Below are positions 33,348 through 60,086 of a stretch of 64,000 nt of DNA, one piece after another. The stretch spans positions 5,884-69,883 of IMG/VR virus record IMGVR_UViG_2933705211_000004; one strand, given 5' to 3'. The translations under genes and the position numbers were made by a program. Position 1 is the first letter of the stretch. Every line of letters begins with the position of its first letter. Under the pieces are notes generated by a model. The model made no database searches. It saw only the letters and a list, made by a program, of their open reading frames with translations, and was not told where the DNA came from. This DNA is from a virus (Duplodnaviria > Caudoviricetes).

Positions 33348-33406
33348 GGCGGGGAACCTCCGGCGGATGGACAGTAGGCCGCCGGGACCGTGCCGTGCCC
33401 GCCGGG

Positions 33407-33622: not shown

Positions 33623-33633
33623 CGGTACGGCTC

Positions 33634-37600: not shown

Positions 37601-40600
37601 ACGTTGTTGTCCGTGTCGCCGTCGGCCCACCGTACGGACACGGTGGCGTCGGTGACCCCGGTGACGGTGCCTGCACGGTCGCCGTTCCCGGTCACCGCGG
37701 TGCCGGGGAAGAGACCGCGGCCGCGGGCGTCGGTGGCGATGGTGTCGGGCAGGGCACCGCTGGCCACAGCGCCTTGGGCACCGCTTGCCGGGGCGCCCGG
37801 GGCGGGGGCCTTCGGTGCTTCGGCGCGGGCTGCGCTGGCGTGGAGCGGGGTATAGACGACGCCCCGAGCGCCACTCTGGCCGTCGGGGTTCTCACCGATC
37901 GTCGTACGCCACATGTCCCCGGTGCGGCCCCGGCGGGTCACCGTGACCCGCTGTGGGGAGTCGAGGACGTATCCGGCGCGGGTCACGGCGCGGCCGCGCT
38001 GGTTGGTTCCGTCGATGCGTGCCATGTCGCCGGGCTGGAGCTGGTCGACGCTGGCCCAGTGAGCAGGCTGTCCGCCGATCGGCTCCGGCTCGGCGGCCGG
38101 CCGTTGGCGCCTTAGCGCGTCCTGGTCCGGCGCGGCTTCCCCTGCCGGCCGGACCGTCGTGGCATCCGAAGGAGCCGGTGCCTGCGGGGCGTTGGAGTCG
38201 GGGCGGCCCCCGGAGCGGGCGTTCTGGTCATTGTCCCGGCTGTTGCCGCTGTGCTCGCCGGGACGCGGCTTGCGTCGTACGACGCCCAGCTCCAGGCGCG
38301 CGTCATGCGGGCTGTCGGTCTGCCCGTCCGGACCGGTCCAGGTGATGTCGGCCGGGTAGCGGTAGTAGTCACGTGAGGCGAGCGCCTGCATGCCGGTGGG
38401 GCTCCAGACCCGTGACTGGTCGTCAGTGATGGTGCCCCGTGCGGTGCCGAGCGGGTGCGCGCCGCCGCGCAGGGAGTGGGCGGGGTCGACGGCCAGCGGG
38501 AAGCTGACTTCGTCCCCTGCCTGCAGCTCGGCGGGATTGGCGAGCACGGTGTAGCCGTCGGCCTCCTGCTGCTGGTGCCAGGCGTCTGCCTCCTGCCGCC
38601 ATGTCCGATGCTCGTCGGCGCGGGCCGCGTCGAACCGCCACTGGCCCTCGCGGCTCGGGTTCTGGGCCAGGACGCGGGCCATGGTCTCGGCGAGGCTTTC
38701 GCCGTCCGGGCCGCGGAACGTCCGGGCGCGCTCCATAGCGTCGGGAGCGTCCCACGGGAACGGGTTGCCGTCGGCGTCCCGAACCTCGGCTTCGAGGGTG
38801 TTCGCTGCGTGGAGCGCGTCCTTGAGCGTGCCGAGCCCGTCCCCGTGCGCCTGGAGCAGCGGCAGCAGACCGCCGGGGGTGGCCACGGTGAAGCGGCGGT
38901 TGTTCTCCTCGCCGTGCCGGGCCGAGCGGTTGCCGTGCACCAGGAGCCGACCACCACGCGAGAGCCGGGTGTGCTTGTCGTCGGCGATCTCACGCTGCTC
39001 GGCGGGGCTCGGCGGGCGGGTTCGGCTGCCTTCGTCGAGCGAGGAGGGGTCGAGCTGGCCGTTGCGCAGGTGCTCACGTACGGCGTTGAGGTTGGCGAAC
39101 CGGGGGGTGGCCGGGTCGTACGCGGCAGGGGCAGGGGCAGGGGCAGGGGCAGGGGCAAGCTCCGGCGCAGGTCCAGGGCTAACGCTGTTGCCCGGCTCGG
39201 GATCGGCGACGGTGTCCGGCGCGGGCGCGCCCTCACCCGCGACCATGTCCGAGGCACCCGCGTTCTGCCGCTGTGCCTCCTCATGCCGGTCGCGCTCGAC
39301 ACGCTCATCAGCGCGGCGCTGCTGCTTGAACTGGTTATAGGTGAGGCGCCCCCCGTTGTCGTCGAACCATTCGAGCAACTCCTCGCTGGCGTAGTCGCGC
39401 CACCGGCCGAACCGGGACAGGCTGCCGCCGGAGAACAGGTCACGCTCGCCGACGGGAGGGAGCCGCCTGCTGTTGCGGCTGAAGAAGTAGCCGTTGGTCG
39501 CATCAAGGGCAGCCGCGTACCGGGCCTCGTCGGCCTCCTGGAACTCGCGCTGCAGACGCTCCTCGCGCGACAGCGGTCGCCGGGTGACGTCCGTGTCGCC
39601 GAAGCCGAGAGCGGCATCCATTGCCTCGCCGCGCTGGCGGACTTCCTCGGCGCTGGTCGGAGCCGTGGCCGGGATGGCGTCGCGGACACGCTGATCAGCG
39701 TTGTCCCGGCGGTCCATCTCCGCCATGACCCTCATCTGGTCGCCTTCCGACAGGCCCTGCCCCCACGCTGCGGCAAGGTCGTGGTCGGACATGGCAGTCA
39801 GGTCGTCCGGCAGCGCGGTGAGCTTGGGCGCGGCCTCGGGGGTATCGGTGGATTCGGGGGCGGGTGCAGGGCTTTCGTGGTCTTGCTGGAAGGCGTCGCG
39901 GGCCGCGTGCAGGGCCTGTGGCAGGGGCCGCCCGTTGCGGTCGCGCCATCGGGCGATGGTGTCGGGGCTGAGCGGTTGGTGCCAGTCGAGTGGCTGCCCG
40001 TCGGCGTCAGTGATCTGCTCGAACCGGTCGGCGAGTTCGCGTGCCTCGTCGGCATCGCGGGCCGCGAAGGTGATCTTGCCGAGGCGGCCGCCGTTGCGGG
40101 ACTGCGCGAAGCGCCACTGGTCGGGGGCGTCGGGATCGCTCCAGGTGACCAGCCCGCCGCCGGAGGACAGGGTCACGGTCGGGTTGTCCGCGAGCTGGGC
40201 AAGGAACTCCCGCCGCTCAGCGGTGTTCTCCTCCGTGGTCAGTCCGGCACCACGGCGCCAGACGTCACGCAGCTCCTCGACGGTACGGGGATGCTCAGGC
40301 CGCGCTGCACCATCTGGTGCTCCGCGGTCTGCCGCGTCATCGTTTCCGGTGCGGTTGGACAGGTCCGGCAGATTCGGCAGGCCGCCCGTGGGCAGACCGG
40401 AGCCGCCCAGGCCGCCCGGCCCCGCGCCGTTGCCGCGGCCTCCACGCCGACGGCGACGGCGGCGGTCATTCTCGTCATCCCGGCTGTCGGTGCCGGCGTC
40501 TCCGGGGCGGGGCTCAGCCGGACCCTCGGGGGTGCCCGGGGACTGCGCGCCGTCCGGCCCCGTGCCCGGTGTGCCGTCCGGGCCCGCGCCGTTGGTGTCC

Positions 40601-43600
40601 TGGTCGCGGCGGCGCCGTTCGTCGCGGGGCTGCTCCTCGTCCGGTTCGCTGCGGGCGGGCCGCTCTGACTCCGGGGCGTCTTCGGGGGCAGCTGTCTCGC
40701 CATCCGGAGACGTGGTGCGGTCGCCGTCCTGCCTGCTCGGCTCACCCTCGTCGACGGGCGCGGAAGCGTCCGGCACCGGGGCCGTGGCATCGTCCACCGG
40801 GTCGGTGCGGTCGCGTGCCTGCTCGCCGTCACCAGACTGCTCGTTGTCGACGATCTCCTCGTCCGGATAGCGCAGGCGCAGCTCGGCGTCTCGGTTGTAG
40901 TAGCGCTCCTGGCCATCGTCGGTGACGATGCGGACCCGCCCGCGGCCGGTGAGCCGGGGCGGTTCGGCGATCGTGCGCGTACGGCCGTCCGCGTCGGTGT
41001 ACCGGTCTCCCGCTTCCAGGTCGGCAGGGTTACGCATCTGGACGGGGCGCAGGTCGCTGGTGTCGCGTCCCTCGTGGTCCGCGAACATGTCCGGGGTGCC
41101 GAACACGTCGTCGGGCCGGTCGAGCGGGTTGTCCGGATCGGCAATCTGGGGCGTGGGGGCCTGCGGCTCGTCGACGTCGAAGAGACCACCCTCGGGCGCG
41201 GCAGGCTCCGGCTTGGGCGCAGGCTTCGGGGTACGCCCGGCCCGGCGGTCCTTCTCGGCCTCCAGAACCGTCATGCGGGTGCGGTCGAGGCCGGTCAGCT
41301 CGCCGTCGGCCATCTCTCGTTCGACCAGGGCGACAATCTCGTCGGCGATCTCCTGGTCCGTCATAGCCGACGGCGCGCGGGTGCCTTCGGGGCGTATGGC
41401 ATCGAGCTGTTGGGCGACCTCGTCGCGGTCGAGGGTGACCGTGCCGTCGTCCGCCGCCGTGCTGTCCGTGTCGGGCGAGTTCGGCTCCTGGCTCGGGGTG
41501 CGCCGCTGCTCGGCAGGCGTGTCCTCGCCGTCGTCACCGGGCGGGGTAGAAATGGGCGGCAGATCCTGGCCGCCGTCATTGCCGCCGTCACCCGCCGCTG
41601 TGTTCCGAGCGAACGGCGTCTCATCAGCGGGGGCGTCGTCCGTGCGAAGCCCATCGAGCGTCCGGGAGACCTCACCGGCCGGCAGACGGTCCCGGTCTGC
41701 TTCCGACTGCTCGGGGTGCTCCGGGCGCTCGGGCTCGGGATGCTCGCGGTCGAAGTCCTCAAGCGTGAGCACTGAGTTGTCGACGGCTCCCTGGAGCGGT
41801 ACCCGAGCGGCGCGGCGCTTCTCGACGATCTCCTTGCGCTGCGCCTTGGTCAGCTTCTTGTCGAGGTCGTCCTCATCGATCTCGGGCAGCTTGTCGAGCT
41901 CGGCGACCCTGCCGACCACATCGTCCAGCAGGTTCGCGCGGGCCCGCGCGTGCTCGATCTGCGGGGTGAGGTCAGCTGCGGCCTGCGAGGACTGCAACAG
42001 GGCTATTTGCTCGTCGAGTTCGGGCAGGCGTGCCCGGTCAGCCTGCTGGAGTGCATCGGCCTTCTCCAGGGCGTTGGCCAGGCGGGTGATCAGGCTCGAA
42101 CCGGCGCCCTTCTTCCGCAGGTCGTCCGGGCCTCGCTCGAAGTCGGAGCGCGCGAGGTCAGGGAAGCCGACGTGCGCGACGAGCGCGCCGTCCGGGCGGC
42201 GTTCGGTGCGCACCCCGATGTCGAGGCCGCCGAACTGCCCCAGGATCTTCCACGGGCCGATGCCGTCGCGGTCGTGCTCCAGAAGCTGGGTGGTGACCTG
42301 CCGGTGCAGCGCCGCGGCGGCATCCGAGCGCTCGTTGTACGACAGGCTCCCAAGGCTCATGGCGAAGGTGTCGCGGACGTTGCGGATGCGGGGCAGGGCC
42401 TGGTCGCGGCGTGTGATGCCGTCGTGGGTGTCGGTGAGTTCCTGTTGCAGGTCGGCCAGGGCCTCGGTGCGGCGGACGCGTTCGGCGGCCTCGTTGTGCT
42501 GGTCGATCTCCAGGTCGCGCAGGGTCCGGCGGGCCTTCATGAGCTGGCTCATGTAGGGGTTGCCGCCGATCTCGGCTTCCATCGTCTCGTAGTCGGGGTA
42601 GTCGACGTCGAGTTCGGTGACGGTGTCGCGGGTGTCGCTGTCGGCCATCTCCGGGCGCTGGATGTCGATCAGGCCCTCCGCCTTGGAGGCGACGAATCCG
42701 GCTTTCCAGCCGTCGAGGCTGCCCTTGGTGGCGAAGATGTCGATCTCGACCTCGGGGTTCTGGTTGCCGTACCGCAGGATGCGGCCGTTGCGCTGTTCCA
42801 TCTGCGCGGCGCCCCAGTCGAGATCCACGTGCGTCAGCGACACCATGCGGTTCTGGGCGTTCATGCCGGTGCCGGCGATGCTGCTGGAGCCGATGAGGAC
42901 GGCTATGTCACCGTCGCGGGCACGGCGGAACAACTCGGCCAGTTCCTCGGGCTTGCCCGACTTCTTGTGGTCCTGGACGAAGGCGATCTTCTCGGCGGGA
43001 ATGCCGCCCTGGACCATGAGGTCGCGCAGCTCCGCGTAGGCGTCGAAGCTGCCCCTGTTGTCACCGCCCGGCACACCCTCGTTCAGGAAGATCATCTGGA
43101 GGGCGCCGGTGACGGGATGGTCCTCGTCGCTGCCGTAGTACGTCTTGTAGACGCGGTCCTTGTGGCGGTGGTATCGCTCGACGTGCTTGGCCGCGACCGC
43201 GCCCAGCTTGTTGCCCGCCGAGGCCTTCGGGTCGACGAGCCGGGGGTCCAGGGCGACGGAGGTGCCCTCGTTGGACACCGTGAGCATGTTGTCGTCGACC
43301 AGGTTGCCCTTGCGGTTCCGGATCTGCTGGGGCTCGCCGATGTGAATGGCGCGGCCGCGGCCGACGAGGGTCTTCAGCCGCTTGGCCTGGTCCTTGGTCG
43401 AGTCGACCAGGATCAGGTTGGGGCCGCCGTCCTTGACCCTGGGCCGGGGGATGCCGACGTCGTCGGCCCGCTTGGTATCGGCGACCAGGCCCCACATGGT
43501 CTTCATCGCGCGGCGGTTGTGGAACTCGGCGAACCGCTCCACGACCCGCAGACCGGACCCGTCAGGTGCGTTCTCGATGCGCAGCGTCTTGCGGCCGAAT

Positions 43601-46600
43601 GTCGCCGCCCACAGGTCCGGCGCCCCCGCCTTGTAGGAGTCGAGGACCCACGGCGCTGCCAGGGCGAGCATCGTGTACTGCTCGGTGATCGAGTTGGACA
43701 GCGGCGTACCGGTGGCCAGAGTGACGGTCGCGCGGCCGGCACGGCGACGGTGCAGGTCCGTCAGCTTCTGGTGCAGGTCGATGCCGCGGAGGGTCGCCGG
43801 GTCGCCGCCGCCTTCCTTCGAGCGGAAGCCGACTCTCTTGTACCGGTGAGCCTCGTCGACGACGGCGTAGTCGAACCCGAGGTCGTCCCAGTACGACTGT
43901 CCGGGCGTGCGCATCGGCGCCGCGTTCTTGCTGAGCCGGTTCTGCAGCGTCGCGATGCGCTGCTCGATCTTGGCGACGATGAACGGGTGATTGGGGTTGT
44001 CCGCGTCCTCGTACTGCCGGTCGAGCTGCTCGCGCAGGTCCTCCAGAACGCGGAACTCGTAATCGTCCTGCGCCTCCGGGCTCATCTTGATCGACCCGAA
44101 GGCGGGCTCGGTGAAGATCACCAAGTCCGACTTGTTGGCCCGCAGCCACTCCAGCGTGCTGTCGCGACGCCCGTCGGCGAGGTCCGCCGACGTGATCAAG
44201 TGGATGTCGGCGTTCGGGTACAGGAACCGGGCCTCGTCGTACCACTGCTGCGCGAGGTGATCGGGGACGACGGCGAACGGCTTCTCGATCTGCCCCGACG
44301 CCTTGAGCGCCTGGGTGCCCATGACCAGCGTGGACGTCTTGCCCAGGCCCACCTCGTGGGCGAGGACCACCGACCGCTCGAACTGCATGCGCGCGGCGCC
44401 AGAGAGCTGCCAGGCGTGCGGGGTGCGTTCGGGGGTGATGCCGTCCAGGGACGGGCTCATGCCGTCGTACGAGCGGACGACATGCCCGTTCATGACCTGG
44501 TTGTAGGAGTCGGTCAGCCGCGTGAGGCGTTCGGCATTGGCCGTCGCGTACTTCGCGAACTCCGACCGCATCTGGTCGGCCTTCTGCCGGACCAGGCGGG
44601 ACGTTTCCTCATCGACGTGCTTGCGCTTGTCGTCGTGGTGGATCGTCAGCGAACCGTGGCCGAGGATCGCGCGAGCGATCTCAACGGCCGACTTGCCCCG
44701 GGTGCCCTTGGCCTCGTCGGCCGCGACGCCGTACAGGACGTTGTTGGCCTGCGGGACCTTGCCCGTGTAGAGCATCCAGCCGTAGCGGTCGTCATGAGCG
44801 ACGCGCAGGGTGCGGTCGCCCAGGTACTCGCGCAGGAAGTTTTGGAGCAGCTCGGGCGGCGTCCAGTGCGCGCCCATTTCTGGGGTGAACTCGCCGATGG
44901 TGCGCTCGGTCGGCTGGACCGCTTCGAGCGCGGCAACGTTGACGGCGAACGCCGGGTCCTGCTCGGCGGCGCGGCGCGCGGCGGCGAGCTTGTCGCGGAC
45001 GGGCCCGGACAGATAGGCGCCGGCCAGCTCCAGGCGTCCGGTAGACGGATCGGTGAAGACCTCTGTCCCCAGCGCCCGGACAGCGTCCTGCGGGTCCATG
45101 TCGAGCAGGCGGGAGATCTCGCCGAGGTCGACCTCCCCGGTTGCGGCGACGACCGCGGCCAGAGCCGTCTTCGGGTCTTCGGTCCGGGAGAGTGGCTGGC
45201 GGCGGGCTGCGGCACGTTCGGTGAAGACGCGGGACAGGACTGGCTCGCCCTTGTCCGCGTCCCACCGCTCCAGTGCGAGGACGGAGCCGGCGTCCGGGTC
45301 GGAGCGGAAAGCGCCGTAGGCGGTCGGGGTGCGTTCCTCCGTTCCGTCCGGCCGGGTGCCGGTCTTCATGGAGCGGAACTGGCCCGGCTTGGACAGAGGC
45401 CCGTAGGTGTTGACGTACGCGGTGTGGAGATCGCGGAGTTGGGCGCGCAGCTTCTCGGCGCGCTCGTCCTCGTCGTTCTTGCGGTCCAGCGCGCGCAGCT
45501 CGGCCGCGACGTCACGGAGCTGCATCAGGGAGCGGAGCTGTTCGGTGCGGCCGTCGGAAGGCTCGACCAGTACCGGGTTGCCGCCGTTGACGTGCTGGTA
45601 GAGCTTGCCGTCGTCGCCTTCGTAGAGGCGGCCGGTCCAGTCGGTGGCGTGCTTCTCCCGCGCGGTCTGCAGGAGCACCGGCGCCCGGTTGTCGCCGTCG
45701 GGATGCGGCTCGTAGCCGTTGCCGTCGGCCACCGACTGGGCGGCGATCTCGTGTAGTGCGTCGCGGAGTTGGTCCGCTGCGTTGGCCGGATTGCCCCTGA
45801 CGGTCAGGCGCGGGCCGTACGGGGACGACTCAGTGGTCAGATCCCCGAGGATGTGCTCAGGGTGCTCCGTGAAGTAGGCGTTGACGTGCTCGCGGACGTC
45901 GCCGATCTTCCGCTCGGGGGCGTTGAGCCATTTCGTGTCGCCGGGCTCTTCGCCGTCGGCACGGCGCCGCAGCACCAGCACGTCGGTGACGACGCTGGTG
46001 CCGGCGTCGTTGAAGACCCCGCTCGGCAGGCGCACGGCGCCGATCAGGTCGCCGTACTTTGCGATCTGCTTGCGGGCCTTGTCGCCCTTGGAGTCCAGGG
46101 TGTGCCGGGAGGTGATCAGCAGGGTGATGCCGCCCGGCCGGGTCAGCGCCAGTTCCTTGGTGATGAATCCGTTGTGCAGGGACTCGGCCGGATACCGCTT
46201 GTCGCCGAACGGCACTGAAGCGAAAGGGACGTTGCCGATGCTCGCGTCGAACGTGCCCGGGTGCGCGTCGGTCTCGGCGAAGTTCTCGTTGAGGACGTTG
46301 GCGTCCGGGTAGATCGCGCGGGCGATCCGTGCGCTGGTCGGATCGAGTTCCACGCCGGTCAGGCGGGCGCCGTCGGGGGCGGCGCCGAAGAACGTGCCGC
46401 TACCGGACCCGGCCTCCAGGACGTCACCGTGCTCGAAGCCCAGCTCGCGAAGGCCGTCCCACATCGCTTCGGCGATGGGCTGCGGCGTGTAGTGCATGGA
46501 CAGGGTGCCGCGGGACGCCTGCCGCCACTCCAGCGGTGTGAGCTCGTCGGAGAGCATGGTGCGCAGGTCGCGGTACTCCGCCCAACGGGCATGGTCCTGC

Positions 46601-49600
46601 GTGAACTTGCCGTACCGGGCGCCGCCCTGCTGGTAGCGCGGCTCTTTCTCATTCGGCTCGGCCGCGAACATGATCGGGACCGAGCCCCAGCCCGTCCAGC
46701 GGGCCAGGGTGCGCTTCTCCTGGTCAGTAGCCGGGCGGTTGTCCCGCTCCAGCCGCTTGAGGACCCGGATCGCCTCAACGTTTGCGGAAGCCCGCAGGAT
46801 CGGGCCCTTGGTCGCGGCATCCGCCAGGTCGGGCCTGAAGCGCGCTACATGTCGTACACCGCGTCCTTCATCGCCTGCAGATCCCGCATCTCCGGACTGA
46901 GCGTCTGCGTCTGCTCGGTCTGCGGCTCCGGTTCGGGCAGCAGATCCCGCAGCACCATCGCGGTCGCGTCCGCCCTGATCTGCTTGATCTGGCCCGCCCT
47001 CGACTCGTACTCCGCCGCGGTCGGCACCGTCTGCTCCAGCGCTTCCTCGGCCACCAGGATCGCCGTCTCGATCTCCCTGCCCTTGTTCAGGAAGAACGCC
47101 TCCGGGTCGGTCATCTCCGCCAGCTCCAGCGGCCGGTACTTCGTCCAGTGGTCCCTGGCCACCTGGCTGTAGATGCTCACCATCAGCCCCTTCGTCTGTT
47201 CCGAGAGCCGCACGCAGGGCTGCCTGCTGCGCCTCTATCTCCTGGCGGGAGATGACCTTGCGGTCGTCGTCCCCGCCATCCTTTCGTACTGCCGTGCGCT
47301 GCGCGTCGATCGTGTGCAGCGCAGCGTTGATGGAGGCCAGGCGCGCCTTGGCCCACGACCGGTCCGACGAGTCCAGGTCGCGGTCGCTGGACCGGAGCAT
47401 CATCTCGCGGGACAGATCCTCGGTGACCCGCTGGAACTCGGCGAGCAGCCCCTCGGGTACCTCCAGGTTGGCGCCCTTGCCGATCTTCCCGGTAATAGGG
47501 TTCGTGCCGTCCGACCAGCCGTAAGAGTGGCCCTTGAACAGGTCGTAGAGGGCACGGCGTTCCGGCGTCGCCGAGTTGAAGCTGTCCGCACGGCGCGAGG
47601 ACTTGTACAGCTCGACGAACATCTTCGGCACCCACACCCGGCGCACGGAGCCGTAGTGGCGCACCGACTCCGTTGCGGGATCGGAGTCGTAGCTGTCGAC
47701 GATCGCGGCCAAGGCCTCGGTCATGCTCGGGAAGGCACCCAGGATCCCGCCGAATCTCTGACGCTGCGCGTTCCAACCCGCTTTTTCGCCGCCCCCGTAC
47801 GGAGAGTCGTGGGTGCGGTAGCTGACCTTTCCGTAGTCGTTGCCATCGACCTTGATGGAAGAGCCGTAGCCGCTGCGGAGCGGGTCTTCAGGAGCGTCCG
47901 CCCGGCCGACCTTCTGCTCCCTGCCCTCGGCGCCGCGCCGGTTCTGCTCGTCGAACAAGGCCTTCAGCCGCTCATCCAACGCCTCACGTTCGCGGCCGCG
48001 AGCCTGGTGCTGGTTCTTGAACAGATCGCGGAACTCGTCCGTCAGCGCCTCGTCGCTCAGCCCGTCTGTCTCGGGCCGGTTGCGGTAGACGCTCGCCTTG
48101 CGGTCCTCACGCTCCTCGTAGACCGCACTGCGGCGAGCGGACAGGATCTCGTTCTGTTCCTTACCCAGTTGACGCAGCTTGACGGGCAAACGGAGAAACT
48201 CCGACTCCAGAGCCTCGTCGTCCAGCTCCTGGACCGCCGGCCGCTGCTCGATGTCACGGAGCTGCCGGATCTCCTGCTCGGCCTTCACGTCCTCCAGCCG
48301 CTCGGCCAGCTGGCCGGCCAGAGCCCGCTCAGGGTTGTCGTCCCCGCTCTCCGGCAGATGATTGGCCGACACCTGGTGCCCTTGGCGTCGGTCCTCCAAC
48401 TCCTTTGCCAGCGCAGTGAGTTCGGCGTCGCCCAGATCTGATGGCGTGCGGGATCGGTCGATGCGTTCGTTCGTGCGGCGCCGCCGGTCTTCGTACAGGG
48501 CCTGCTCATCGTCGGTGAGGAGATCACCCTGCCGAGACCCGTAAGTGCCCCGCTCCCGCTGGGACTCAACGATCGCGCCGTGCAACTCAGCGTCACTCAA
48601 CGCGGCGGCACGCTCGGCCGGACTCGACTCGGAGTCCTGCCCCCCGTCCCCGGCATCGTCGCTCCGGCTTGCGATACGGCGCCGGTCGAGTTCAGCCTCG
48701 ACCTTTTGGAGCGAGGCGCGCGCCTTCTGCCTTCGTGCAGGGGTCGTGGCCACCTGAGCATGGATCTTGAGGTTGTCGCGGTGCTCACGCAGGTCCGCGT
48801 CCGACATGGCCCGGAGTGTCTTGGCGTCCTCGTCGAGCTGCTCCCGCCGGGGGGTGCTGGTGCTGGAGTCCTCGTCGGTGAAGCGGACGTTGCGGCCCTG
48901 CCGGACGAATGCGGCGACGATGTCAGCGGCCTTGCGGTCGCGGGTCTCCGGCTTCCACTGGGTGCCGGTGACCCGGGCCTTCAGGATGGGAGACCAGGCC
49001 AGTCTTCCAGCGGCACTCACGGCCCGGTCGTCTCGTGCGTCGTTCTTGATCGTGCCGCGTACCGCGATGATGCGCTTGCCCTTGTGGGTGGTCCAGGCAA
49101 GGTGCACATGGTCGGCCTGTGCCGGGTCGGCAGTGGCCAGGTGATGCCGGGCAATGATCTGGTCGGCGATGTTCAGGTTGTTGCCGATGGTGATGTGGAC
49201 GCCGTCGACCGTGGCGTGCCGGTCGTTGTAGCCGCCGACGACGCTGGCGATGCGGGTGCTGTCCGGGCCGTACACGGTGACGGGCCCGGGATTCCAGGAG
49301 GTCGCCCAGTAGCCGTCTACGCCGTCAACCGGCTCGGCGTCTTCGGGCACGCCTGCCGGCCGCCCGTCAGGAGCGGGCGCGGGTGCCTCGTCCGGCTGGC
49401 CACCATCGTCTTCGGGCGCACCGTCCGGGACTGCACTGTCGCTGGGTGTGCTGCTGTCGGTCGAGGGAGCCGGATGCTCTGCCGTGTCCGTCTGCGGAGA
49501 GGTGGCCTCGTCATCCCCGAAGGGGCGGCGGCGCAGCGTCTCGGCAAGCCGGGCGGTGGCAATGCTGTGCTTCGGCGGGTGCTCCTGGTCCCACAAGGCA

Positions 49601-51009
49601 CGCGCGGCGGTCCACTCCTGGTGGTAGTCGCGCCCCTCCGCGGACCGCCAACTGGCCCGCCCCTCAGCGAACTTGGGGTCGGAGAAGTCGAGGGCGTTGC
49701 CGTCCTTGTCCTTGAGGGTGCCGACAATGTGCTCCGCGAAGGCCTTGGCGTCTGCCTGCCGGTCGAACCACCACGGCATCCGCTGGCCGCTGCCCGTGGC
49801 GTACAAGTACCAGTCGCCCTCGACCTTGCGAGCGACGAACTGGCCCTCGCCGACGAGCTTGAGGCGCGAGTCTTTGACCAGGGAGTCAAGGTCGCGGGCG
49901 GTGCGCCGGTCCGGCTCGTTGGAGGAGCCACGAAGGCCGTCGGCCCGCTGCGTCCAGTTGTCGCGAGCCTGCTGGAGAGTGGTGAACCGGCCGCGCGGCT
50001 GGGGACGCTGGGGCGTGGGAGCCGCCGGAGCGCTCGTGTCAGCATCGGCACGGAAGTCCCGGACGGCCCGCCGGATCGCCTGCTCGGGGCCCTCGCCCTT
50101 GATGGAGCGCCACGTCGGCGCCCACTTCGCCATGTCCGGGTCGGAGAAGTCGAAGGGCTCGTTGAATTCGCCCGGCATGATGTGCCCGTTGCGGACGTTG
50201 TCCTGAACGTACTCGCCCACGGCCGCGGCCTCGGCACGGGTGGCGAAGTCGCCGACGCCGAGATAGCCGCCCGTTCCCGTCGAGGTGAGGTACCAGCGGC
50301 CGTTGGAGTCGTCCCGTGTGGTGACCAGGCCGCCCGTTGGCGTGATCTGCAGATCCTCATCTCCGGCCAGGCGCCGCAGCGCCGGAGCGTTTACGCCGGG
50401 CTGCTGGGCCAGGCTGAGGAAGTGGCGGCGTACCGCTGCGGTGTCCTCGAACCGGGCCCCGCTCTTGGCCTTGTGGTTCGGGAGCGCCCCGGTGGCGACC
50501 TCGTGGTGCCCGTCTTCGGGCTCGTCCTGGTCGTCGCTGTTGTCCGGGCCGTTCCCGTCGTCGGCGCCGATGTCGGTGCCTTCGTCGTCGACGGTGTGCG
50601 GCTTGTCGGGGGTGGCGGGGTCACCGTGGTCGTCGCGGGACAGGCCGAGGCCACGCCGATCGTCCGTGCCACGGCGGGCGTCCTCGGCCTCCACCTTGCT
50701 CTGGTTCTTTGTGGGGGCGCTGCCGTCAGGGCGCGCCACCATGGTGATCCACCGGGCATTGGTGCTGTGGCGGCGTCCCGTGAACGTGCCGTCGGACGCC
50801 TGGTCCTGAACGAGTACGCGGTCTCGCGGGAGCGCGCGCACGACCCGGGCGAGCTTGCCCGACCACAACCTCGCAACTCCACCGGTCTCAATGAACCGGC
50901 CCTTGCTGTCCCTCGGGTGCAGGGCAGGATTCCACGGCTGTCGTACGGACTTGGTCTCAAGCGCGCGACTCAGGCTCAGGCCGACCGGGGAGGCGGTGCG
51001 ATTCAGCAT
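34615..51009 (-). CDS. giant polyvalent protein: N6-adenine methyltransferase + SNF2 helicase (DarB-like), 5464 aa
   Basis: VLEAGSGSG, GNVPF, LAHEVGLGKT, DEAH, ATGTP, QRNGRILR. Start reassigned to ATG 51009 because ATG 51021 lies inside the promoter -10. Confidence 0.9.
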   Translation of the reverse strand: MLNRTASPVGLSLSRALETKSVRQPWNPALHPRDSKGRFIETGGVARLWSGKLARVVRALPRDRVLVQDQASDGTFTGRRHSTNARWITMVARPDGSAPTKNQSKVEAEDARRGTDDRRGLGLSRDDHGDPATPDKPHTVDDEGTDIGADDGNGPDNSDDQDEPEDGHHEVATGALPNHKAKSGARFEDTAAVRRHFLSLAQQPGVNAPALRRLAGDEDLQITPTGGLVTTRDDSNGRWYLTSTGTGGYLGVGDFATRAEAAAVGEYVQDNVRNGHIMPGEFNEPFDFSDPDMAKWAPTWRSIKGEGPEQAIRRAVRDFRADADTSAPAAPTPQRPQPRGRFTTLQQARDNWTQRADGLRGSSNEPDRRTARDLDSLVKDSRLKLVGEGQFVARKVEGDWYLYATGSGQRMPWWFDRQADAKAFAEHIVGTLKDKDGNALDFSDPKFAEGRASWRSAEGRDYHQEWTAARALWDQEHPPKHSIATARLAETLRRRPFGDDEATSPQTDTAEHPAPSTDSSTPSDSAVPDGAPEDDGGQPDEAPAPAPDGRPAGVPEDAEPVDGVDGYWATSWNPGPVTVYGPDSTRIASVVGGYNDRHATVDGVHITIGNNLNIADQIIARHHLATADPAQADHVHLAWTTHKGKRIIAVRGTIKNDARDDRAVSAAGRLAWSPILKARVTGTQWKPETRDRKAADIVAAFVRQGRNVRFTDEDSSTSTPRREQLDEDAKTLRAMSDADLREHRDNLKIHAQVATTPARRQKARASLQKVEAELDRRRIASRSDDAGDGGQDSESSPAERAAALSDAELHGAIVESQRERGTYGSRQGDLLTDDEQALYEDRRRRTNERIDRSRTPSDLGDAELTALAKELEDRRQGHQVSANHLPESGDDNPERALAGQLAERLEDVKAEQEIRQLRDIEQRPAVQELDDEALESEFLRLPVKLRQLGKEQNEILSARRSAVYEEREDRKASVYRNRPETDGLSDEALTDEFRDLFKNQHQARGREREALDERLKALFDEQNRRGAEGREQKVGRADAPEDPLRSGYGSSIKVDGNDYGKVSYRTHDSPYGGGEKAGWNAQRQRFGGILGAFPSMTEALAAIVDSYDSDPATESVRHYGSVRRVWVPKMFVELYKSSRRADSFNSATPERRALYDLFKGHSYGWSDGTNPITGKIGKGANLEVPEGLLAEFQRVTEDLSREMMLRSSDRDLDSSDRSWAKARLASINAALHTIDAQRTAVRKDGGDDDRKVISRQEIEAQQAALRAALGTDEGADGEHLQPGGQGPLDEVPAAGAGGDDRPGGVLPEQGQGDRDGDPGGRGSAGADGADRGGVRVEGGPDQADQGGRDRDGAAGSAARTGAADRADADAQSGDAGSAGDEGRGVRHVARFRPDLADAATKGPILRASANVEAIRVLKRLERDNRPATDQEKRTLARWTGWGSVPIMFAAEPNEKEPRYQQGGARYGKFTQDHARWAEYRDLRTMLSDELTPLEWRQASRGTLSMHYTPQPIAEAMWDGLRELGFEHGDVLEAGSGSGTFFGAAPDGARLTGVELDPTSARIARAIYPDANVLNENFAETDAHPGTFDASIGNVPFASVPFGDKRYPAESLHNGFITKELALTRPGGITLLITSRHTLDSKGDKARKQIAKYGDLIGAVRLPSGVFNDAGTSVVTDVLVLRRRADGEEPGDTKWLNAPERKIGDVREHVNAYFTEHPEHILGDLTTESSPYGPRLTVRGNPANAADQLRDALHEIAAQSVADGNGYEPHPDGDNRAPVLLQTAREKHATDWTGRLYEGDDGKLYQHVNGGNPVLVEPSDGRTEQLRSLMQLRDVAAELRALDRKNDEDERAEKLRAQLRDLHTAYVNTYGPLSKPGQFRSMKTGTRPDGTEERTPTAYGAFRSDPDAGSVLALERWDADKGEPVLSRVFTERAAARRQPLSRTEDPKTALAAVVAATGEVDLGEISRLLDMDPQDAVRALGTEVFTDPSTGRLELAGAYLSGPVRDKLAAARRAAEQDPAFAVNVAALEAVQPTERTIGEFTPEMGAHWTPPELLQNFLREYLGDRTLRVAHDDRYGWMLYTGKVPQANNVLYGVAADEAKGTRGKSAVEIARAILGHGSLTIHHDDKRKHVDEETSRLVRQKADQMRSEFAKYATANAERLTRLTDSYNQVMNGHVVRSYDGMSPSLDGITPERTPHAWQLSGAARMQFERSVVLAHEVGLGKTSTLVMGTQALKASGQIEKPFAVVPDHLAQQWYDEARFLYPNADIHLITSADLADGRRDSTLEWLRANKSDLVIFTEPAFGSIKMSPEAQDDYEFRVLEDLREQLDRQYEDADNPNHPFIVAKIEQRIATLQNRLSKNAAPMRTPGQSYWDDLGFDYAVVDEAHRYKRVGFRSKEGGGDPATLRGIDLHQKLTDLHRRRAGRATVTLATGTPLSNSITEQYTMLALAAPWVLDSYKAGAPDLWAATFGRKTLRIENAPDGSGLRVVERFAEFHNRRAMKTMWGLVADTKRADDVGIPRPRVKDGGPNLILVDSTKDQAKRLKTLVGRGRAIHIGEPQQIRNRKGNLVDDNMLTVSNEGTSVALDPRLVDPKASAGNKLGAVAAKHVERYHRHKDRVYKTYYGSDEDHPVTGALQMIFLNEGVPGGDNRGSFDAYAELRDLMVQGGIPAEKIAFVQDHKKSGKPEELAELFRRARDGDIAVLIGSSSIAGTGMNAQNRMVSLTHVDLDWGAAQMEQRNGRILRYGNQNPEVEIDIFATKGSLDGWKAGFVASKAEGLIDIQRPEMADSDTRDTVTELDVDYPDYETMEAEIGGNPYMSQLMKARRTLRDLEIDQHNEAAERVRRTEALADLQQELTDTHDGITRRDQALPRIRNVRDTFAMSLGSLSYNERSDAAAALHRQVTTQLLEHDRDGIGPWKILGQFGGLDIGVRTERRPDGALVAHVGFPDLARSDFERGPDDLRKKGAGSSLITRLANALEKADALQQADRARLPELDEQIALLQSSQAAADLTPQIEHARARANLLDDVVGRVAELDKLPEIDEDDLDKKLTKAQRKEIVEKRRAARVPLQGAVDNSVLTLEDFDREHPEPERPEHPEQSEADRDRLPAGEVSRTLDGLRTDDAPADETPFARNTAAGDGGNDGGQDLPPISTPPGDDGEDTPAEQRRTPSQEPNSPDTDSTAADDGTVTLDRDEVAQQLDAIRPEGTRAPSAMTDQEIADEIVALVEREMADGELTGLDRTRMTVLEAEKDRRAGRTPKPAPKPEPAAPEGGLFDVDEPQAPTPQIADPDNPLDRPDDVFGTPDMFADHEGRDTSDLRPVQMRNPADLEAGDRYTDADGRTRTIAEPPRLTGRGRVRIVTDDGQERYYNRDAELRLRYPDEEIVDNEQSGDGEQARDRTDPVDDATAPVPDASAPVDEGEPSRQDGDRTTSPDGETAAPEDAPESERPARSEPDEEQPRDERRRRDQDTNGAGPDGTPGTGPDGAQSPGTPEGPAEPRPGDAGTDSRDDENDRRRRRRRGGRGNGAGPGGLGGSGLPTGGLPNLPDLSNRTGNDDAADRGAPDGAARPEHPRTVEELRDVWRRGAGLTTEENTAERREFLAQLADNPTVTLSSGGGLVTWSDPDAPDQWRFAQSRNGGRLGKITFAARDADEARELADRFEQITDADGQPLDWHQPLSPDTIARWRDRNGRPLPQALHAARDAFQQDHESPAPAPESTDTPEAAPKLTALPDDLTAMSDHDLAAAWGQGLSEGDQMRVMAEMDRRDNADQRVRDAIPATAPTSAEEVRQRGEAMDAALGFGDTDVTRRPLSREERLQREFQEADEARYAAALDATNGYFFSRNSRRLPPVGERDLFSGGSLSRFGRWRDYASEELLEWFDDNGGRLTYNQFKQQRRADERVERDRHEEAQRQNAGASDMVAGEGAPAPDTVADPEPGNSVSPGPAPELAPAPAPAPAPAAYDPATPRFANLNAVREHLRNGQLDPSSLDEGSRTRPPSPAEQREIADDKHTRLSRGGRLLVHGNRSARHGEENNRRFTVATPGGLLPLLQAHGDGLGTLKDALHAANTLEAEVRDADGNPFPWDAPDAMERARTFRGPDGESLAETMARVLAQNPSREGQWRFDAARADEHRTWRQEADAWHQQQEADGYTVLANPAELQAGDEVSFPLAVDPAHSLRGGAHPLGTARGTITDDQSRVWSPTGMQALASRDYYRYPADITWTGPDGQTDSPHDARLELGVVRRKPRPGEHSGNSRDNDQNARSGGRPDSNAPQAPAPSDATTVRPAGEAAPDQDALRRQRPAAEPEPIGGQPAHWASVDQLQPGDMARIDGTNQRGRAVTRAGYVLDSPQRVTVTRRGRTGDMWRTTIGENPDGQSGARGVVYTPLHASAARAEAPKAPAPGAPASGAQGAVASGALPDTIATDARGRGLFPGTAVTGNGDRAGTVTGVTDATVSVRWADGDTDNNVAPSSLNISESTGARPEGWTTTGQRIRPGHVVADDRGALLGPVDETDGDRITVTTADGTVTRSAADLRVVGEVRDDTPATAPITGISQPTADEVTTGDIIVLDLDGTPATVEIRDTNRDSDRITFDYADTTTGELGTIDMDATAVVHKAEGPNGEAPDLGPDDAPSAADDLTVHQPLPALDPVTGPTVDPDLTPADRDAIADNGTTPEDTPEAQQAAARLGADLPVTPDQAAALAAQLRANADPSTPQGRAALRAADHLDLAAGRTAPEGLDRPRPSNAAQISEGDVIAMPDERRGDEVHVYRVLDVEEGPGGVRRLLLEDENRQWKRRLVHAAMPVWQLPEPAPVSTDSTVPDSAPAPAPRDPNSPIASVRRQIVSNHSRTVAVRIIDEAVAGTEPPGEIHALRDQIAQRLTPEALHDARNAARQEGNAALTAAGITGRDRASVQQALRRAREKAHERTVRAALRTVNDLEPLPGESNEDLAQRAADLLRLIPDQADPSSSSRRRSAPDIHGSDDATTHVNNAVTSLLRQLGETGTDPADTAALTRLLAAQLNGTRQATAQRIVRRAAATAPGNGPQPGFLAQAIALLGSIGRRLIELVKAVGRKIAELWHNSRDRISRLKAFLRRLVRRVRDWPESRRLARLNAALDLPDVEGESLAARVSQWAGLLPERGRFGQASRRVSWWRPTTWTQLAAGRLPGRSSETRWIPDRAADGGPGLTALRHMAALRSVGADVDREVTRRLADTLGDDFGHDPHGTLQHADDYMAATERRLLNLQAARTTSTIQDPDVEVEIAAARMEASAARREWEELRSRYAAAVPDAVAAALAGIRDLGPQGNAGIVFSPDTTPDAERAVPGAQRLIPRDWLATPDGRRLTAVDGDEARYEPDARRATIADLDDEGLGTAGYVLGQHLAGHLPDLDAAQRVFWFTRTHTGRPGARTLDDSALGRLLHQHRQLTQTDTGDSLARSLQAMFTGDWYEDDDLRAFLLGLLATR
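46845..47183 (-). CDS. TnpV-like protein nested out of frame in the giant ORF
   Basis: GAAGGGG RBS; YSQVARDHWTKYRP...DPEAFF..G...EY..RAG.I..IRA.A...VL.DLLP; GC3-rich in this frame. Confidence 0.75.
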   Translation of the reverse strand: MVSIYSQVARDHWTKYRPLELAEMTDPEAFFLNKGREIETAILVAEEALEQTVPTAAEYESRAGQIKQIRADATAMVLRDLLPEPEPQTEQTQTLSPEMRDLQAMKDAVYDM

Positions 51010-51016
51010 GGCGCGG

Positions 51017-51046
51017 ACCATGCAGGCCGCACGTGGTTAAGGTCGC
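51017..51046 (-). promoter_or_regulatory. late promoter motif (giant gene, leaderless)
   Basis: GCGACCT-N17-CATGGT, 7 nt before ATG 51009. Confidence 0.7.
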
Positions 51047-51116: not shown

Positions 51117-53594
51117 CTACATCGTCTCGGCCGTCTCCTTGGCGACGGGGCCGGTGCGGTAGTGCAGGCGGCAGCGGCAGTTGATGGTGAGAGCGAGGGG
51201 GGCGAACGGGTCGCCGGGGTAACGCAGAGTGGCACCGTCAGCGGTGAAGGGGCTACCGACAGGCAGGGTGGTGCCATTCATGGCGCGGTGGGCGGCCCGT
51301 ACGCGGTCGTCGCCGCGGGTGATCCAGGTGCGCAGCACCCCATGGCCTGAGTGTTCGGCAGCGGCGTCGGTTGCCCCGTTGACGGTGGCCACGGCGCAGG
51401 ACTCGGCGAGGCCTGCCACCAGACCGGGTGTGGTGGCACGGTAGAACTCGGCGACTGCGGTGGCGAGTTCGTCGATGGTGGCTTCCTCGTGCTGGGCGTC
51501 GTCGAGGGCCTGAGCAAGGTCAGTGAGCAGCGCGCTGATCGATTGCCCGGCCATGGCTGCGGCTGCCGCCGCGGCGCCGGCCGCAACTGGGGGGACAGTG
51601 CGCTGTCCAGTCAGCGCCGCACTGGCGGTGGAGGCGGTGGTGGCCGAGGTGTGCTGAAGGATCGGGATCAGAGTGCTGGTGGCTTCCTCGGCCCAACGCG
51701 AGGCCCCAACCACGCGTTGAACGTCAATCAGGGCGTCCCCGCGGCGCAGGTCCTGCTCCCCGTCCGGTTCCCAGTAGCGGGTGTGCTTACGGGTCTTGGG
51801 GGCATGAAGACGGGCGATGACGACTCCTTCCTGCCGGGCCAGGAGCGCGGTGAGCGCGGCAGTGACCGCGACGGTCGCTGTATCAAAGTCGCTGTCGGTG
51901 ACCTCGTAGCCGCCGGAATCCTCGGGGCCGGGAAGAGCCTTGTGTTCAGGGGAGCGCGCCGACTCCACGTCGGCGGCGGCATCACCCGGCCTTGTCTGCG
52001 CCGCCGTGGTGCTCGCGCGGGCGGCGGTCACGTCATCAGCGGCATCGCCGGGCAGGGCCAGCGGAATGCCGTCCCGTGCCTGCGCAACGACAGCGGCGGC
52101 CGAGCCGCCCTCGGTACCCAAGTCGTCTCGGGCTTCGGCGACATCGGCGACCGCACTGCCGGTGGCGGGGCTCTCGTGGGCCGCTGCGACTGTCTCGGCC
52201 GCCGTACCCTCGTTCGTTGTGGTTGCAGCAGCGAGGGCAGCTGGCTGTCCGCCAGGCATTCCGGGCAGCGCGCCCGCAGCCGGGTCCTGGGCAACACCGA
52301 GCGCGGCCGCGTCCTGCTCGTTCGCGGGGACGGGAGCCTTCTGGGGGCTGATCCACAGGGCGCGGGTGTGGGGGACGTTGAAAGGCCGCCGCCCGGCAAT
52401 CTCGCGGTACTCGTCCACGGTGATCAGCCCGGCGTTCCACTCGGCGCGGGCTTCCTCGCGCCGCTGACGGCGCGGATACTCCAGAGCCTCAACGGGGGAG
52501 GTGTTGAAGCGCACCGTCCAGCCGTCGTCCAAGTCCAGGTCGAACCCGGAGGCGATCAACGCCAAGTGCGGCAGTTCGGTGTGCTGCCAGAAATTCCATT
52601 CCTCGCGGTCGGCATTCGCGTACGTCCGCTCGCTGGCGTTCCCGATGATGGATTCCGCAACGCCGAAAGCAGCGAGGATCTCGTCCTTGGCGGTCTTCGA
52701 CGTCGTCTCGTAGGCCATGTCGCGCGGCCGCGTACTGGTGTCGACATAGTTGAGGCCGCCCGGACCGCTGCCGATCACAACGGTTTCACCGGCATGCTGC
52801 GCGCCGGGTGCAAACCGCTGCTGAATACGGTCTATCTCGCGCTGGTCGAGACCGTCGACGTCGATGCCAACGAGGCCGGACGGGCGCGCATCGTTGTCGA
52901 TGAACGAAATGTTGTACAGGCGCGACTTCACATCCAGATCGACGGACAGGCCCGCGGCCTCAAGCGGGGTGACCCCACTGAACGGATCGGTCGGGTGCGG
53001 GTCGCGCAGCCACACGACGCGGCTCGGCTCCAGTTCACGAACCCGGCCGTCGTAGGTGGTGAACTCGAAGTGGCTGAGATAGTCGCCGTGCGGATCAGGA
53101 ACCGGATTGACCCGATTGGGCGGCAGCAGGTCGAGGCGGGTGATCGTGCCCGCGCGGCTGCGAGTGATCTCGACGAACACGCCCTTTTTGGAGAGCAGGA
53201 GTTGAGCACTGAGCCGCTTCTTGAACACCGCCGCGGTCTCCAGCGGGTTCGCCCTCACATTCAGCACCCGCAGTAGCGGATGGTCGGTGAGGGTCTCCGC
53301 GAACTGCCGCTCATCACCGCCCCGTCCGATCTCGACCCGGAGCGCCCCCGGGTGCTTGGAGATCGCCTCCACGCTCTTGAACGTCCAGATGCTGCGCTCG
53401 TAGCCCTCGCTGATGACCCGGTCGAGGTCCCAGTTCTCGGCGCGACCCTCAGTGCCCCATGCCGTGGTGGTCTCCGCGAACGTCATGGAAACGTAGGAGT
53501 TGCCGGGCAGCCCGGCGGATTTGGTCTCGGGGGGAGGCGCGGTCGTCCGGGACTGGAGGAGGGTGCGGAGGCTGGGCAGGAACTGGCGCGGCAT
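51117..53594 (-). CDS. HK97-family portal protein fused to MuF (gpF-like) domain
   Basis: DPFSGVTPL, NDARPSG, ILAAFGV, TYANA, GLITVDEYRE; C-terminal WITRGDDRVRAAH...PGDP...INCRC. Confidence 0.9.
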   Translation of the reverse strand: MPRQFLPSLRTLLQSRTTAPPPETKSAGLPGNSYVSMTFAETTTAWGTEGRAENWDLDRVISEGYERSIWTFKSVEAISKHPGALRVEIGRGGDERQFAETLTDHPLLRVLNVRANPLETAAVFKKRLSAQLLLSKKGVFVEITRSRAGTITRLDLLPPNRVNPVPDPHGDYLSHFEFTTYDGRVRELEPSRVVWLRDPHPTDPFSGVTPLEAAGLSVDLDVKSRLYNISFIDNDARPSGLVGIDVDGLDQREIDRIQQRFAPGAQHAGETVVIGSGPGGLNYVDTSTRPRDMAYETTSKTAKDEILAAFGVAESIIGNASERTYANADREEWNFWQHTELPHLALIASGFDLDLDDGWTVRFNTSPVEALEYPRRQRREEARAEWNAGLITVDEYREIAGRRPFNVPHTRALWISPQKAPVPANEQDAAALGVAQDPAAGALPGMPGGQPAALAAATTTNEGTAAETVAAAHESPATGSAVADVAEARDDLGTEGGSAAAVVAQARDGIPLALPGDAADDVTAARASTTAAQTRPGDAAADVESARSPEHKALPGPEDSGGYEVTDSDFDTATVAVTAALTALLARQEGVVIARLHAPKTRKHTRYWEPDGEQDLRRGDALIDVQRVVGASRWAEEATSTLIPILQHTSATTASTASAALTGQRTVPPVAAGAAAAAAAMAGQSISALLTDLAQALDDAQHEEATIDELATAVAEFYRATTPGLVAGLAESCAVATVNGATDAAAEHSGHGVLRTWITRGDDRVRAAHRAMNGTTLPVGSPFTADGATLRYPGDPFAPLALTINCRCRLHYRTGPVAKETAETM

Positions 53595-54935: not shown

Positions 54936-55583
54936 CTACTGCTGGGGGCTGCCCGGAGCGATCACTTCAACCTGCCCACCCCGCTCACCGATCCACGCCT
55001 CGAGTTCCGTGCCGGCCAGCTCTCGGGAGGATTCGCCACTGAAGAACGTGATCGGCCCGAAAACGGTGCCTGTCAGGCCACGCACCACCGTAGCGTCGTC
55101 GACTTTGACCCTGAAGCTGTTGTGGAACAAGACCGCGTCGGTCAGGTCCGCTCCCCTCAGATCGACGCGGAAGAGCGAAGCCCCCATGACCCTTGTTCCT
55201 CTGAAGCTCGCTCCCGACGCATCGACGCCGTGCAGCGAGGCCTTGACCATGTCGGCGCCGTCGAGCCGCGCCGAACGGAGCACGGCCTCGTCAAGATTCG
55301 CCCTGACGAGGTCGGCGCCGGTGAGATCCGCACCGGTGAGATCCGCTGACTGAAGGTCGGCGCGGTAGAAACTCGCTCCCGCTAGCCGCACACCCGCCAA
55401 GACCGCCTGGGTGAACCACGAGCTCGTGAAGTCTCCGCCCGACAGGTCCGCACCTCGGAAGTCGTGCTCGATGCCGAAAAGGCTGGAACCCTCCTCGGCC
55501 ATCCATTCCTGCAACTGGCGCGTCGCCTCAGGGTCAGTAGGGAGCGTCTTCGGCTCCCATTTCTTACGGGTACCAGATGACAT
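54936..55583 (-). CDS. pentapeptide-repeat protein, probable immunity protein
   Basis: A(D/N)Lxx repeats; overlaps the toxin 3' end. Confidence 0.85.
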   Translation of the reverse strand: MSSGTRKKWEPKTLPTDPEATRQLQEWMAEEGSSLFGIEHDFRGADLSGGDFTSSWFTQAVLAGVRLAGASFYRADLQSADLTGADLTGADLVRANLDEAVLRSARLDGADMVKASLHGVDASGASFRGTRVMGASLFRVDLRGADLTDAVLFHNSFRVKVDDATVVRGLTGTVFGPITFFSGESSRELAGTELEAWIGERGGQVEVIAPGSPQQ

Positions 55584-59867: not shown

Positions 59868-60086
59868 TCAGCGGTGTGAGGCCTGGCAGCGCCAGGCTTG
59901 GGGCGGCGTGAATCATGCCCCCGGTGGCTACCTAGGGAGTGCCACTGACAACTTTGGGTGATAGTGCGAGGCCATCGGGAAGCCGGGCCGATGATCATGT
60001 TCCGGGGGTCGGAACGAGGCCCGTCACGGGTGGGGCGGGAGATAGGGTGGAGGCTTCCCACGACCCGCCTCGGAGGTGCCTGCCCG

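Follow-up and report, generated by a model that had tools for sequence, protein, structure and literature searches.

The window analysed here is a stretch of 64,000 nucleotides (nt) of a Caudoviricetes genome (positions 5,884 to 69,883 of IMG/VR record IMGVR_UViG_2933705211_000004). Its minus strand carries a giant open reading frame (ORF; 34615..51021) of 5468 amino acids (aa), predicted to encode a DarB-like polyvalent protein in which a linker connects the N-terminal module to a methylase and an SNF2 helicase, with a long C-terminal part after these. Within this ORF, on the same strand and in the +1 frame relative to it, lies a second complete gene (46845..47183, minus strand) of 112 codons that ends in a TAG at 46847-46845. 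The locus had drawn attention in a sequence-only reading as a 112-aa same-strand ORF with a ribosome-binding site and GC-rich third positions that ends where the methylase region starts, and all of these features were confirmed from the ORF list, a Shine-Dalgarno (SD)-like site, a third-position GC content (GC3) of 0.96 and tblastn alignments.

A 112-codon gene within a giant DarB-like reading frame

The longest same-strand ORF at the nested site begins with GTG and spans 46845..47213 (122 aa), and in the ORF list the ATG at 47183 gives the 112-aa product. An SD-like GAAGGGG (47187..47193, minus strand) is located 5' of this ATG, and the GTG at 47180 is an alternative start. The GC contents of the nested ORF in its own frame are 0.64, 0.39 and 0.96 at codon positions 1, 2 and 3 respectively, and a plot of GC by codon position reveals a switch of frame that spans approximately 47240-46850, where position 1 of the giant frame is at 0.90-1.00 and position 3 at 0.33-0.50; on either side of the nested span, giant-frame position 3 is at 0.8-0.97.

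The giant-frame codons lying over the nested gene (codons 1280-1392; 46846..47184, minus strand) number 113 and include zero stops. They correspond to a Gly/Asp/Ala/Arg-rich acidic linker (G 27%, D 16%, A 16%, R 10%; isoelectric point, pI, 4.26) that is predicted to be disordered, and the composition count bears out the earlier description of this segment as stop-free G/D/A/R low-complexity text. When giant aa 1200-1560 were modelled with AlphaFold2, aa 1276-1403 had a predicted local distance difference test (pLDDT) score of 29-35 and no secondary structure, between helical flanks with pLDDT of 70-93. The overlap at aa 1280-1392 thus coincides with a disordered linker.

Upstream of the overlap is the N-terminal module (giant aa 1-1279; 47185..51021, minus strand), whose last conserved residues abut the nested start and whose GC3 follows the giant frame; searches with these 1279 residues returned 0 Pfam and 0 PHROG families. 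Downstream, the methylase-SNF2 helicase dyad (43153..46794, minus strand) was identified by PHROG, Pfam and tblastn, and its conserved N-terminus follows directly after the nested TAG, in a segment starting at 46845. This segment matches PHROG 10089 ('DarB-like antirestriction') over residues 18-1231 (1214 residues; E 1.4e-214) and Pfam SNF2 at 822-1003, with weak matches to Methyltransf_25/Eco57I at 132-262 and additional matches to ResIII and Helicase_C; tblastn aligns DarB-like proteins of Erwinia and Ralstonia phages from segment residue 3 onward, at 33-34% identity. The order of a methylase domain and then an SNF2-type helicase in one polypeptide, encoded by a phage beside its morphogenesis genes, is that of DarB-like polyvalent proteins.

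We consider that this is probably true dual coding in a same-strand nested pair conserved across Actinomycetes. The simplest reading is that the giant polypeptide would be made by plain read-through and the small protein from its own internal start. Ribosomes starting at 51021 would read straight through 47184-46846 in the giant frame to yield a 113-residue disordered linker joining the 1279-aa module to the methylase-SNF2 helicase, and other ribosomes would start at the internal SD and ATG 47183 and read the DNA shifted by one base, to make a 112-aa acidic helical protein ending at the TAG where the folded methylase domain begins.

Conservation and constraint in both frames

To describe the relatives, we refer to the window and 20 related Streptomyces loci (21 sequences) as the close set. 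The nested start codon, SD-like site and stop position are conserved in all 21, and a more distant group within the set has GGGAGG 5 nt before the ATG; GGAG-type sites are also present ahead of the nested ATG in distant loci. The nested stop is TAG in 20 of the 21 close sequences and TAA in one, and across 36 loci the counts are 31 TAG, 4 TAA and 1 TGA. TGA is the usual stop in high-GC actinomycetes. The preference for TAG may belong to the G-first rule described below, because the giant-frame codon that comes next has this G as its first base.

For the window and 18 of the 20 close loci, the giant frame can be followed without a break from thousands of bases 5' of the small gene, through the N-terminal module and into the methylase, as far as the fetched DNA extends; in 19 of the 21 sequences no stop closes the upstream module. 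Giant-frame conservation of the C-terminal end of this module holds for 20 of 21, and the other sequence, L021, is degraded upstream. Splitting of the giant ORF in relatives, which had been named beforehand as an observation that would count against dual coding, is confined to two exceptions, L009 and L021. L021 is a decayed remnant. In L009 the run from the nested stop to the methylase start (~10340-10352) is 1 nt shorter, at a C5 homopolymer, and the methylase is therefore out of frame, which reflects either a frameshift of recent origin or an error of long reads at the homopolymer.

Nesting is not restricted to the close set, and extends to L024, at 35% identity, and to L025, from a different family of the order, at 26% identity. 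A sample of the class contained matches in 13 of 401 genomes and 8 of 174 genera, and in these the small gene is always immediately 5' of the methylase N-terminus, with the latter in the -1 frame. A giant-frame stop inside the small gene is absent from 35 of 36 loci, the exception being L027, where the methylase itself is frameshifted. In forms that do not have the long N-terminal module, the giant frame opens with a short leader peptide upstream of the small-gene start, conserved across six loci, and in L025 there is a plausible SD and ATG in the giant frame 58 nt upstream of the small gene. The leader has a Q-L-S-L-x-x-L-W-like motif in L028, L029, L031, L033, L034 and L035 (~80 nt upstream of position 1501), and also in L027, L025 and L037, that we presume to resemble the beta-clamp-binding pentapeptide QL[SD]LF.

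An open frame opposite a gene with high GC3 is not in itself surprising, and the giant frame could be a functionless run-on across three ordinary genes, arising as a by-product of the small-gene GC3. Stops are rare when giant position 1 has a GC content of 0.90-1.00. We evaluated this by resampling, with the small protein sequence fixed and codons redrawn from giant ORF usage in 20,000 trials; the giant frame was free of stops in 13.4% of trials, with a mean of 1.9 stops. Considering both giant-ORF and local-flank usage, openness in the window is expected in 13-21% of trials, yet the frame is open in 35 of 36 loci. With local flank usage in 13 lineages the expected openness ranges from 0.10 to 0.66, reaching 66% of resamplings at the upper end, and all 13 are open; the product of the 13 probabilities is ~1e-7, which is overstated since the relatives are not independent.

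The codon usage of the small gene is skewed in a manner that relates to the giant frame. G is found at 68-85% and C at 9-22% of small-gene four-fold sites in 21 of 21 close sequences, and the flanks have 25-40% G and 32-61% C. For the window the four-fold sites are 42 G to 10 C, the remainder of the giant ORF having 1041 to 1752 (Fisher p = 2.7e-10), and the rare Arg codon AGG accounts for 4 of 7 Arg codons in the nested gene and for 17 of 555 elsewhere in the giant ORF. G at position 3 of the small gene is G at position 1 of the giant frame, and thus specifies Gly, Asp, Ala, Glu or Val and not Arg, Pro, His, Gln or Leu. In the window we observe 78 G-first giant-frame codons, relative to 51.1 +/- 3.9 expected and a maximum of 65 in the 20,000 trials, an excess beyond what is needed for stop avoidance. 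The same excess is seen in 12 of 13 lineages (z = 3.5-7.1), with L037 at 1.6.

Members of the family that are not nested provide natural controls. A family search of 401 genomes gave 25 with matches, from which 26 loci were analysed. Seventeen are nested or of nested type (L048 ends at a contig edge, and in L061 the methylase frame closes after 105 codons), and these have G/(G+C) of 0.74-0.94, a small gene free of giant-frame stops and, downstream of it, a methylase motif in the -1 frame. The other nine comprise seven free-standing paralogues of ~171 codons, the paralogue L039, and L055; their G/(G+C) is 0.25-0.53, none of the nine has the G skew, and eight carry 1-8 stops in the giant-type frame. 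A rank test separates the two groups with p = 4e-5, a value overstated by kinship. In L055 the small gene ends with TGA, which overlaps an ATG belonging to the methylase itself (TGATG), and the methylase N-terminus after this ATG is the conserved one of the other loci. Because L055 and the free-standing controls differ from the nested loci, the G skew and open frame track nesting and not the protein family.

Openness merely through a nested GC3 near 1 was rejected as a candidate explanation, given the 13% in resampling and the stops in un-nested controls. The functionless run-on across three genes accords with the annotation of pNOCA01, where the Prokaryotic Genome Annotation Pipeline (PGAP) has one entry for the small gene and another for an SNF2 protein that starts downstream; together with the controls, the absence of a stop of its own in nearly all copies of the upstream module argues against it, and we regard it as quite unlikely.

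The free-standing paralogues (L050-L054, L056, L058) have C-preferring codon usage, occur in several Streptomycetaceae genomes and are not followed by a methylase. L039 and L036 are tandem family members on one contig of G254; the upstream paralogue is itself in the giant frame and ends with TAG, and the giant frame opens right after this TAG and runs through the second, nested copy into the methylase.

Substitution patterns are consistent with constraint on both frames. For ten sequences of the window's group we compared differences per site among site classes, a frame-specific check that had been proposed beforehand. Sites that are silent in the small gene and not in the giant frame differ at 0.167 per site, those silent in the giant frame and not in the small gene at 0.069, and those silent in neither at 0.074, relative to 0.30-0.35 for silent sites in the flanks (pS); change is therefore reduced in each frame at sites silent in the other. 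The ratio of nonsilent to silent change (omega) is roughly 0.2 for the small protein and 0.5 for the linker, and the order of site classes is the same in a second group and between groups. Small-gene four-fold sites vary at 0.224, compared with 0.36-0.41 in the flanks. As 0.224 is about what the G-skewed composition alone gives, the giant-frame constraint is on composition and not on particular residues.

Most annotation pipelines report the giant coding sequence (CDS) alone, and this would suit a situation in which only the giant frame is translated, the small ORF being either a relic with a lingering frame signal or conserved for its nucleic acid. The third positions of the giant frame behave otherwise, with GC of 0.33-0.50 here and about 0.9 elsewhere, and its four-fold sites over the overlap differ least (0.133). 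Furthermore, the start, SD-like site and stop of the small gene are conserved down to 26% identity, and there are 978 clusters of related small proteins, with free-standing members and a confident fold prediction, as described below. We consider translation of the giant frame alone to be very improbable.

A further question is the route by which ribosomes come to the methylase, whose frame is invariably -1 with respect to the small gene and whose start falls 0-20 codons past the small-gene stop. A phase of -1 is that used by -1 frameshift systems, and the methylase-helicase could be reached from the small gene by ribosomal frameshifting or by re-initiation at its stop, with scarcely any reading, or none, of the giant codons that overlie the small gene; the overlap of a GTG with the TAG in L025 and the TGATG of L055 are in keeping with this. 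However, no slippery X_XXY_YYZ heptamer, as is expected for a programmed -1 frameshift, is present in the small-gene frame in the window and the 20 close relatives, or in 30 of the 36 loci in all; in the other six the heptamers are GC-only and at varying places, and an Rfam search over 46300-47700 gave nothing at E<=1. Re-initiation fares similarly, with no ATG, GTG or TTG in the giant frame between the nested start and 40 codons past the nested stop in the window and five further nested loci; giant-frame start codons are present over that span in other loci, and are not conserved. In addition, the first and second halves of the small gene are equally G-skewed, and conservation in the giant frame extends to the upstream module and to the leader. 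Ribosomes arriving from upstream meet no stop. Entry to the methylase from the small gene is, we believe, unlikely, as is the small protein-methylase fusion or coupled product that would result. Scans for sigma-70 promoters and terminators over 46500-47700 gave 0 sites.

Dual coding had been proposed from the single sequence, and it gains comparative support from the site classes, from the openness and G-first skew that are seen only where the gene is nested, and from the lack of a canonical methylase start; both products are nonetheless predicted. Several points weigh against it. The case is a comparative one, in which translation of either frame is deduced, and the related genomes are not independent, with the consequence that the probability products and the rank test overstate the support. 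The G skew is compositional and could in principle serve a purpose at the level of RNA or DNA. The spacing between the SD-like site and the ATG in the window is short, at only ~3 nt, and the true nested start may be the GTG at 47180; the methylase may also have a non-canonical start. L037 is nested and has no canonical upstream giant-frame start, and its G excess is weak (z = 1.6). Finally, the small protein has neither a fold match in the PDB nor a Pfam, NCBIfam or PHROG family, and the role suggested for it below is a proposed one.

The small protein, its relatives and a possible origin of the nested pair

The product of the nested gene is predicted to be small, acidic (pI 4.46) and helical. 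A homologue search had been suggested as a check of the nested protein, and a word-indexed search yielded 10 close homologues of 105-112 aa at 56-85% identity, several of which are annotated as stand-alone Streptomyces hypothetical proteins. A profile search of 1.84 billion representatives extended these to 978 clusters with E<=1e-3, of which 468 have E<=1e-10. Since the best 150 all have lengths of 88-268 aa, none of the 150 is part of a giant protein as an in-frame domain. The AlphaFold2 model, built on 24 aligned sequences, has five helices and a mean pLDDT of 87, and Foldseek found no match to it in the PDB at E<=0.001 (best E 2.9). The window protein itself has no match to any Pfam (even at E<=10), NCBIfam or PHROG family, and neither it nor a distant relative matched any of 50,697 phage records by tblastn. 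Relatives of the small protein are located on 21 actinomycete plasmid records.

The small protein had been called TnpV-like, and this stands in part. TnpV is a small protein of clostridial and other Bacillota transposons, represented by Pfam PF14198 with a gathering score of 27 bits. Among 11 close homologues PF14198 matched two, with a best E of 0.19, and among 50 sampled distant relatives 15 gave colinear matches of 16.8-25.7 bits (E 1e-5 to 7e-3) at profile positions ~24-111. The best score of any member tested with the PF14198 hidden Markov model, 25.7 bits, is thus below the Pfam threshold, and the window protein itself is unmatched; what remains is a remote similarity by way of its relatives. 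The nearest ESM Atlas clusters are automatically named TnpV family (score 0.91), which we take as a lead only. Both are small helical proteins on mobile elements, the nested product being 112 aa and encoded in a prophage head module, but the invariant place ahead of a methylase-helicase seen here is not a described property of TnpV.

The invariable adjacency of the two genes suggests that the small protein is a partner of the methylase-helicase, with a role, for example, in its folding, its packaging or the restraint of its activity. As to origin, the constant -1 phase, the TGATG of L055 and the TAGTG of L025 suggest descent from a translationally coupled pair with stop and start overlapping by one base. 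Such an overlap would fix the -1 phase, and nesting would result as soon as reading from an upstream start or module ran on across the small gene. That gene is unlikely to be a newcomer, as there are free-standing paralogues and remote Bacillota relatives. It is plausible that the giant gene arose by reading through a retained neighbour, much as the sequence-only reading had suggested; these same features fit that part of the claim, and the direction of the change is one that we infer from them and not from a rooted tree.

L040 (plasmid NZ_CP109265.1, 8977-10458) has an intact small gene, annotated as a hypothetical protein, followed by an IS5 transposase in the place of the methylase. From this locus, and from L021 where the same holds, it appears that the small gene can outlive disruption of the giant gene.

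A more speculative proposal, which we hold tentatively and think doubtful as it stands, is that the nesting is a working device in which an older, independently folding TnpV-like partner gene underwent overprinting by a disordered linker through which upstream modules for delivery or packaging are joined to the methylase-helicase. If true, the usual direction of overprinting would be reversed, and every giant antirestriction mRNA would also supply an obligate small partner in a set ratio. Long stretches of disordered linker in giant genes of high-GC phages and plasmids would then be a general hiding place for unannotated nested genes.

Comparison with known systems and the head-module setting

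The arrangement can be compared with three types of known system. Phage P1 DarB and DarB-like polyvalent proteins likewise have a methylase and SNF2 helicase dyad inside a giant multidomain polypeptide; here the gene is in the head module between portal and protease, with relatives found on actinomycete plasmids, and the linker that precedes the methylase contains a complete second gene, nested in another of its frames. The giant protein belongs to the class of methylase-helicase polyvalent proteins described by Iyer et al. 2017 (PMC5512222), the main text of which has no occurrence of 'TnpV', 'overlapping' or 'frameshift'.

Programmed -1 frameshift pairs such as IS3 orfAB, dnaX and the phage tail chaperones G/GT share with this locus a downstream frame that is -1 to a small upstream gene, with overlapping frames. 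They differ in their use of a slippery heptamer, which is lacking here, where the -1 frame is instead open and conserved far upstream with its own start or a 1279-aa module.

Embedded same-strand gene pairs are also present in phiX174. Embedded phage gene pairs of the lambda Rz/Rz1 type are described in PMC5295617. At our locus too, a complete ORF with its own start signals is situated in another frame of a longer same-strand phage gene, selection is evident on both frames from the site classes, the loss of silent-site change, and the skew and openness seen only if nested, and joint action of the products is expected. The differences are that the host gene here is a polyvalent gene of 5,468 codons and the products are predicted only; that the embedded frame seems the more constrained (by its GC3 and an omega of about 0.2), the host frame being a disordered linker (omega about 0.5); and that an un-nested version of the pair exists in a relative, L055.

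Annotation of these loci is inconsistent. On two Streptomyces plasmids the giant gene is a single CDS, of 5846 and 4839 aa, and the small gene is unannotated; in the pNOCA01 annotation the small gene is present, at 84 aa, and the SNF2 protein has been given a start downstream of this gene. Pipelines thus either miss the small gene within one giant CDS or start the methylase-helicase too late. Among the papers listed by full-text searches on polyvalent proteins, TnpV, actinobacterial nested or overlapping genes, DarB and overprinting or embedded genes, we did not find this nested pair. Long, conserved, same-strand nested genes are rare in bacteria and phages and claims for them are often disputed, and open alternative frames at high GC are usually dismissed as chance; here, the free-standing paralogues and the un-nested form serve as internal controls that lack the skew and, in eight of nine, the open frame. 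The locus thereby flags a conserved and unstudied small candidate partner of DarB-like antirestriction proteins across Actinomycetes, and suggests one way in which giant polyvalent genes may grow, by reading through a neighbour.

The head module in which the pair is set belongs to a Streptomyces prophage or phage-plasmid. A portal protein gene with a MuF-like C-terminus (51117..53594, minus strand; Phage_portal E 2.6e-45, Phage_Mu_F E 1.2e-4 and under cut-off) immediately precedes the giant ORF, and a phage portal gene is likewise located upstream on plasmid CP108533. Downstream are a prohead protease with a LigT/2'-5' RNA ligase-like domain in one 817-aa ORF (31227-33680, minus strand; Pfam Peptidase_S78 and 2_5_RNA_ligase2), the major capsid protein gene (29674-30975, minus strand; Pfam Phage_capsid) and, after the capsid gene, a tail tube gene (23824-24423) and an ORF of 1398 aa, the size of a tape measure protein. 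Family assignment and gene position point to an antirestriction protein of DarB type, injected or packaged, as the most likely identity of the giant product.

A few other features were noted around these genes. Among the plasmid matches, the gene downstream of the small gene in H12 is annotated in fragments. A second MuF-like ORF of 176 aa (26412-26942, minus strand), with a sub-threshold match, is further down the module. Just beyond the head module there is a pentapeptide-repeat protein gene (54936-55661, minus strand) and a full DnaE-type DNA polymerase III alpha subunit gene (59958-63653, plus strand); the latter gene points to either a phage-plasmid or a temperate phage of large size that encodes a replicase of its own.

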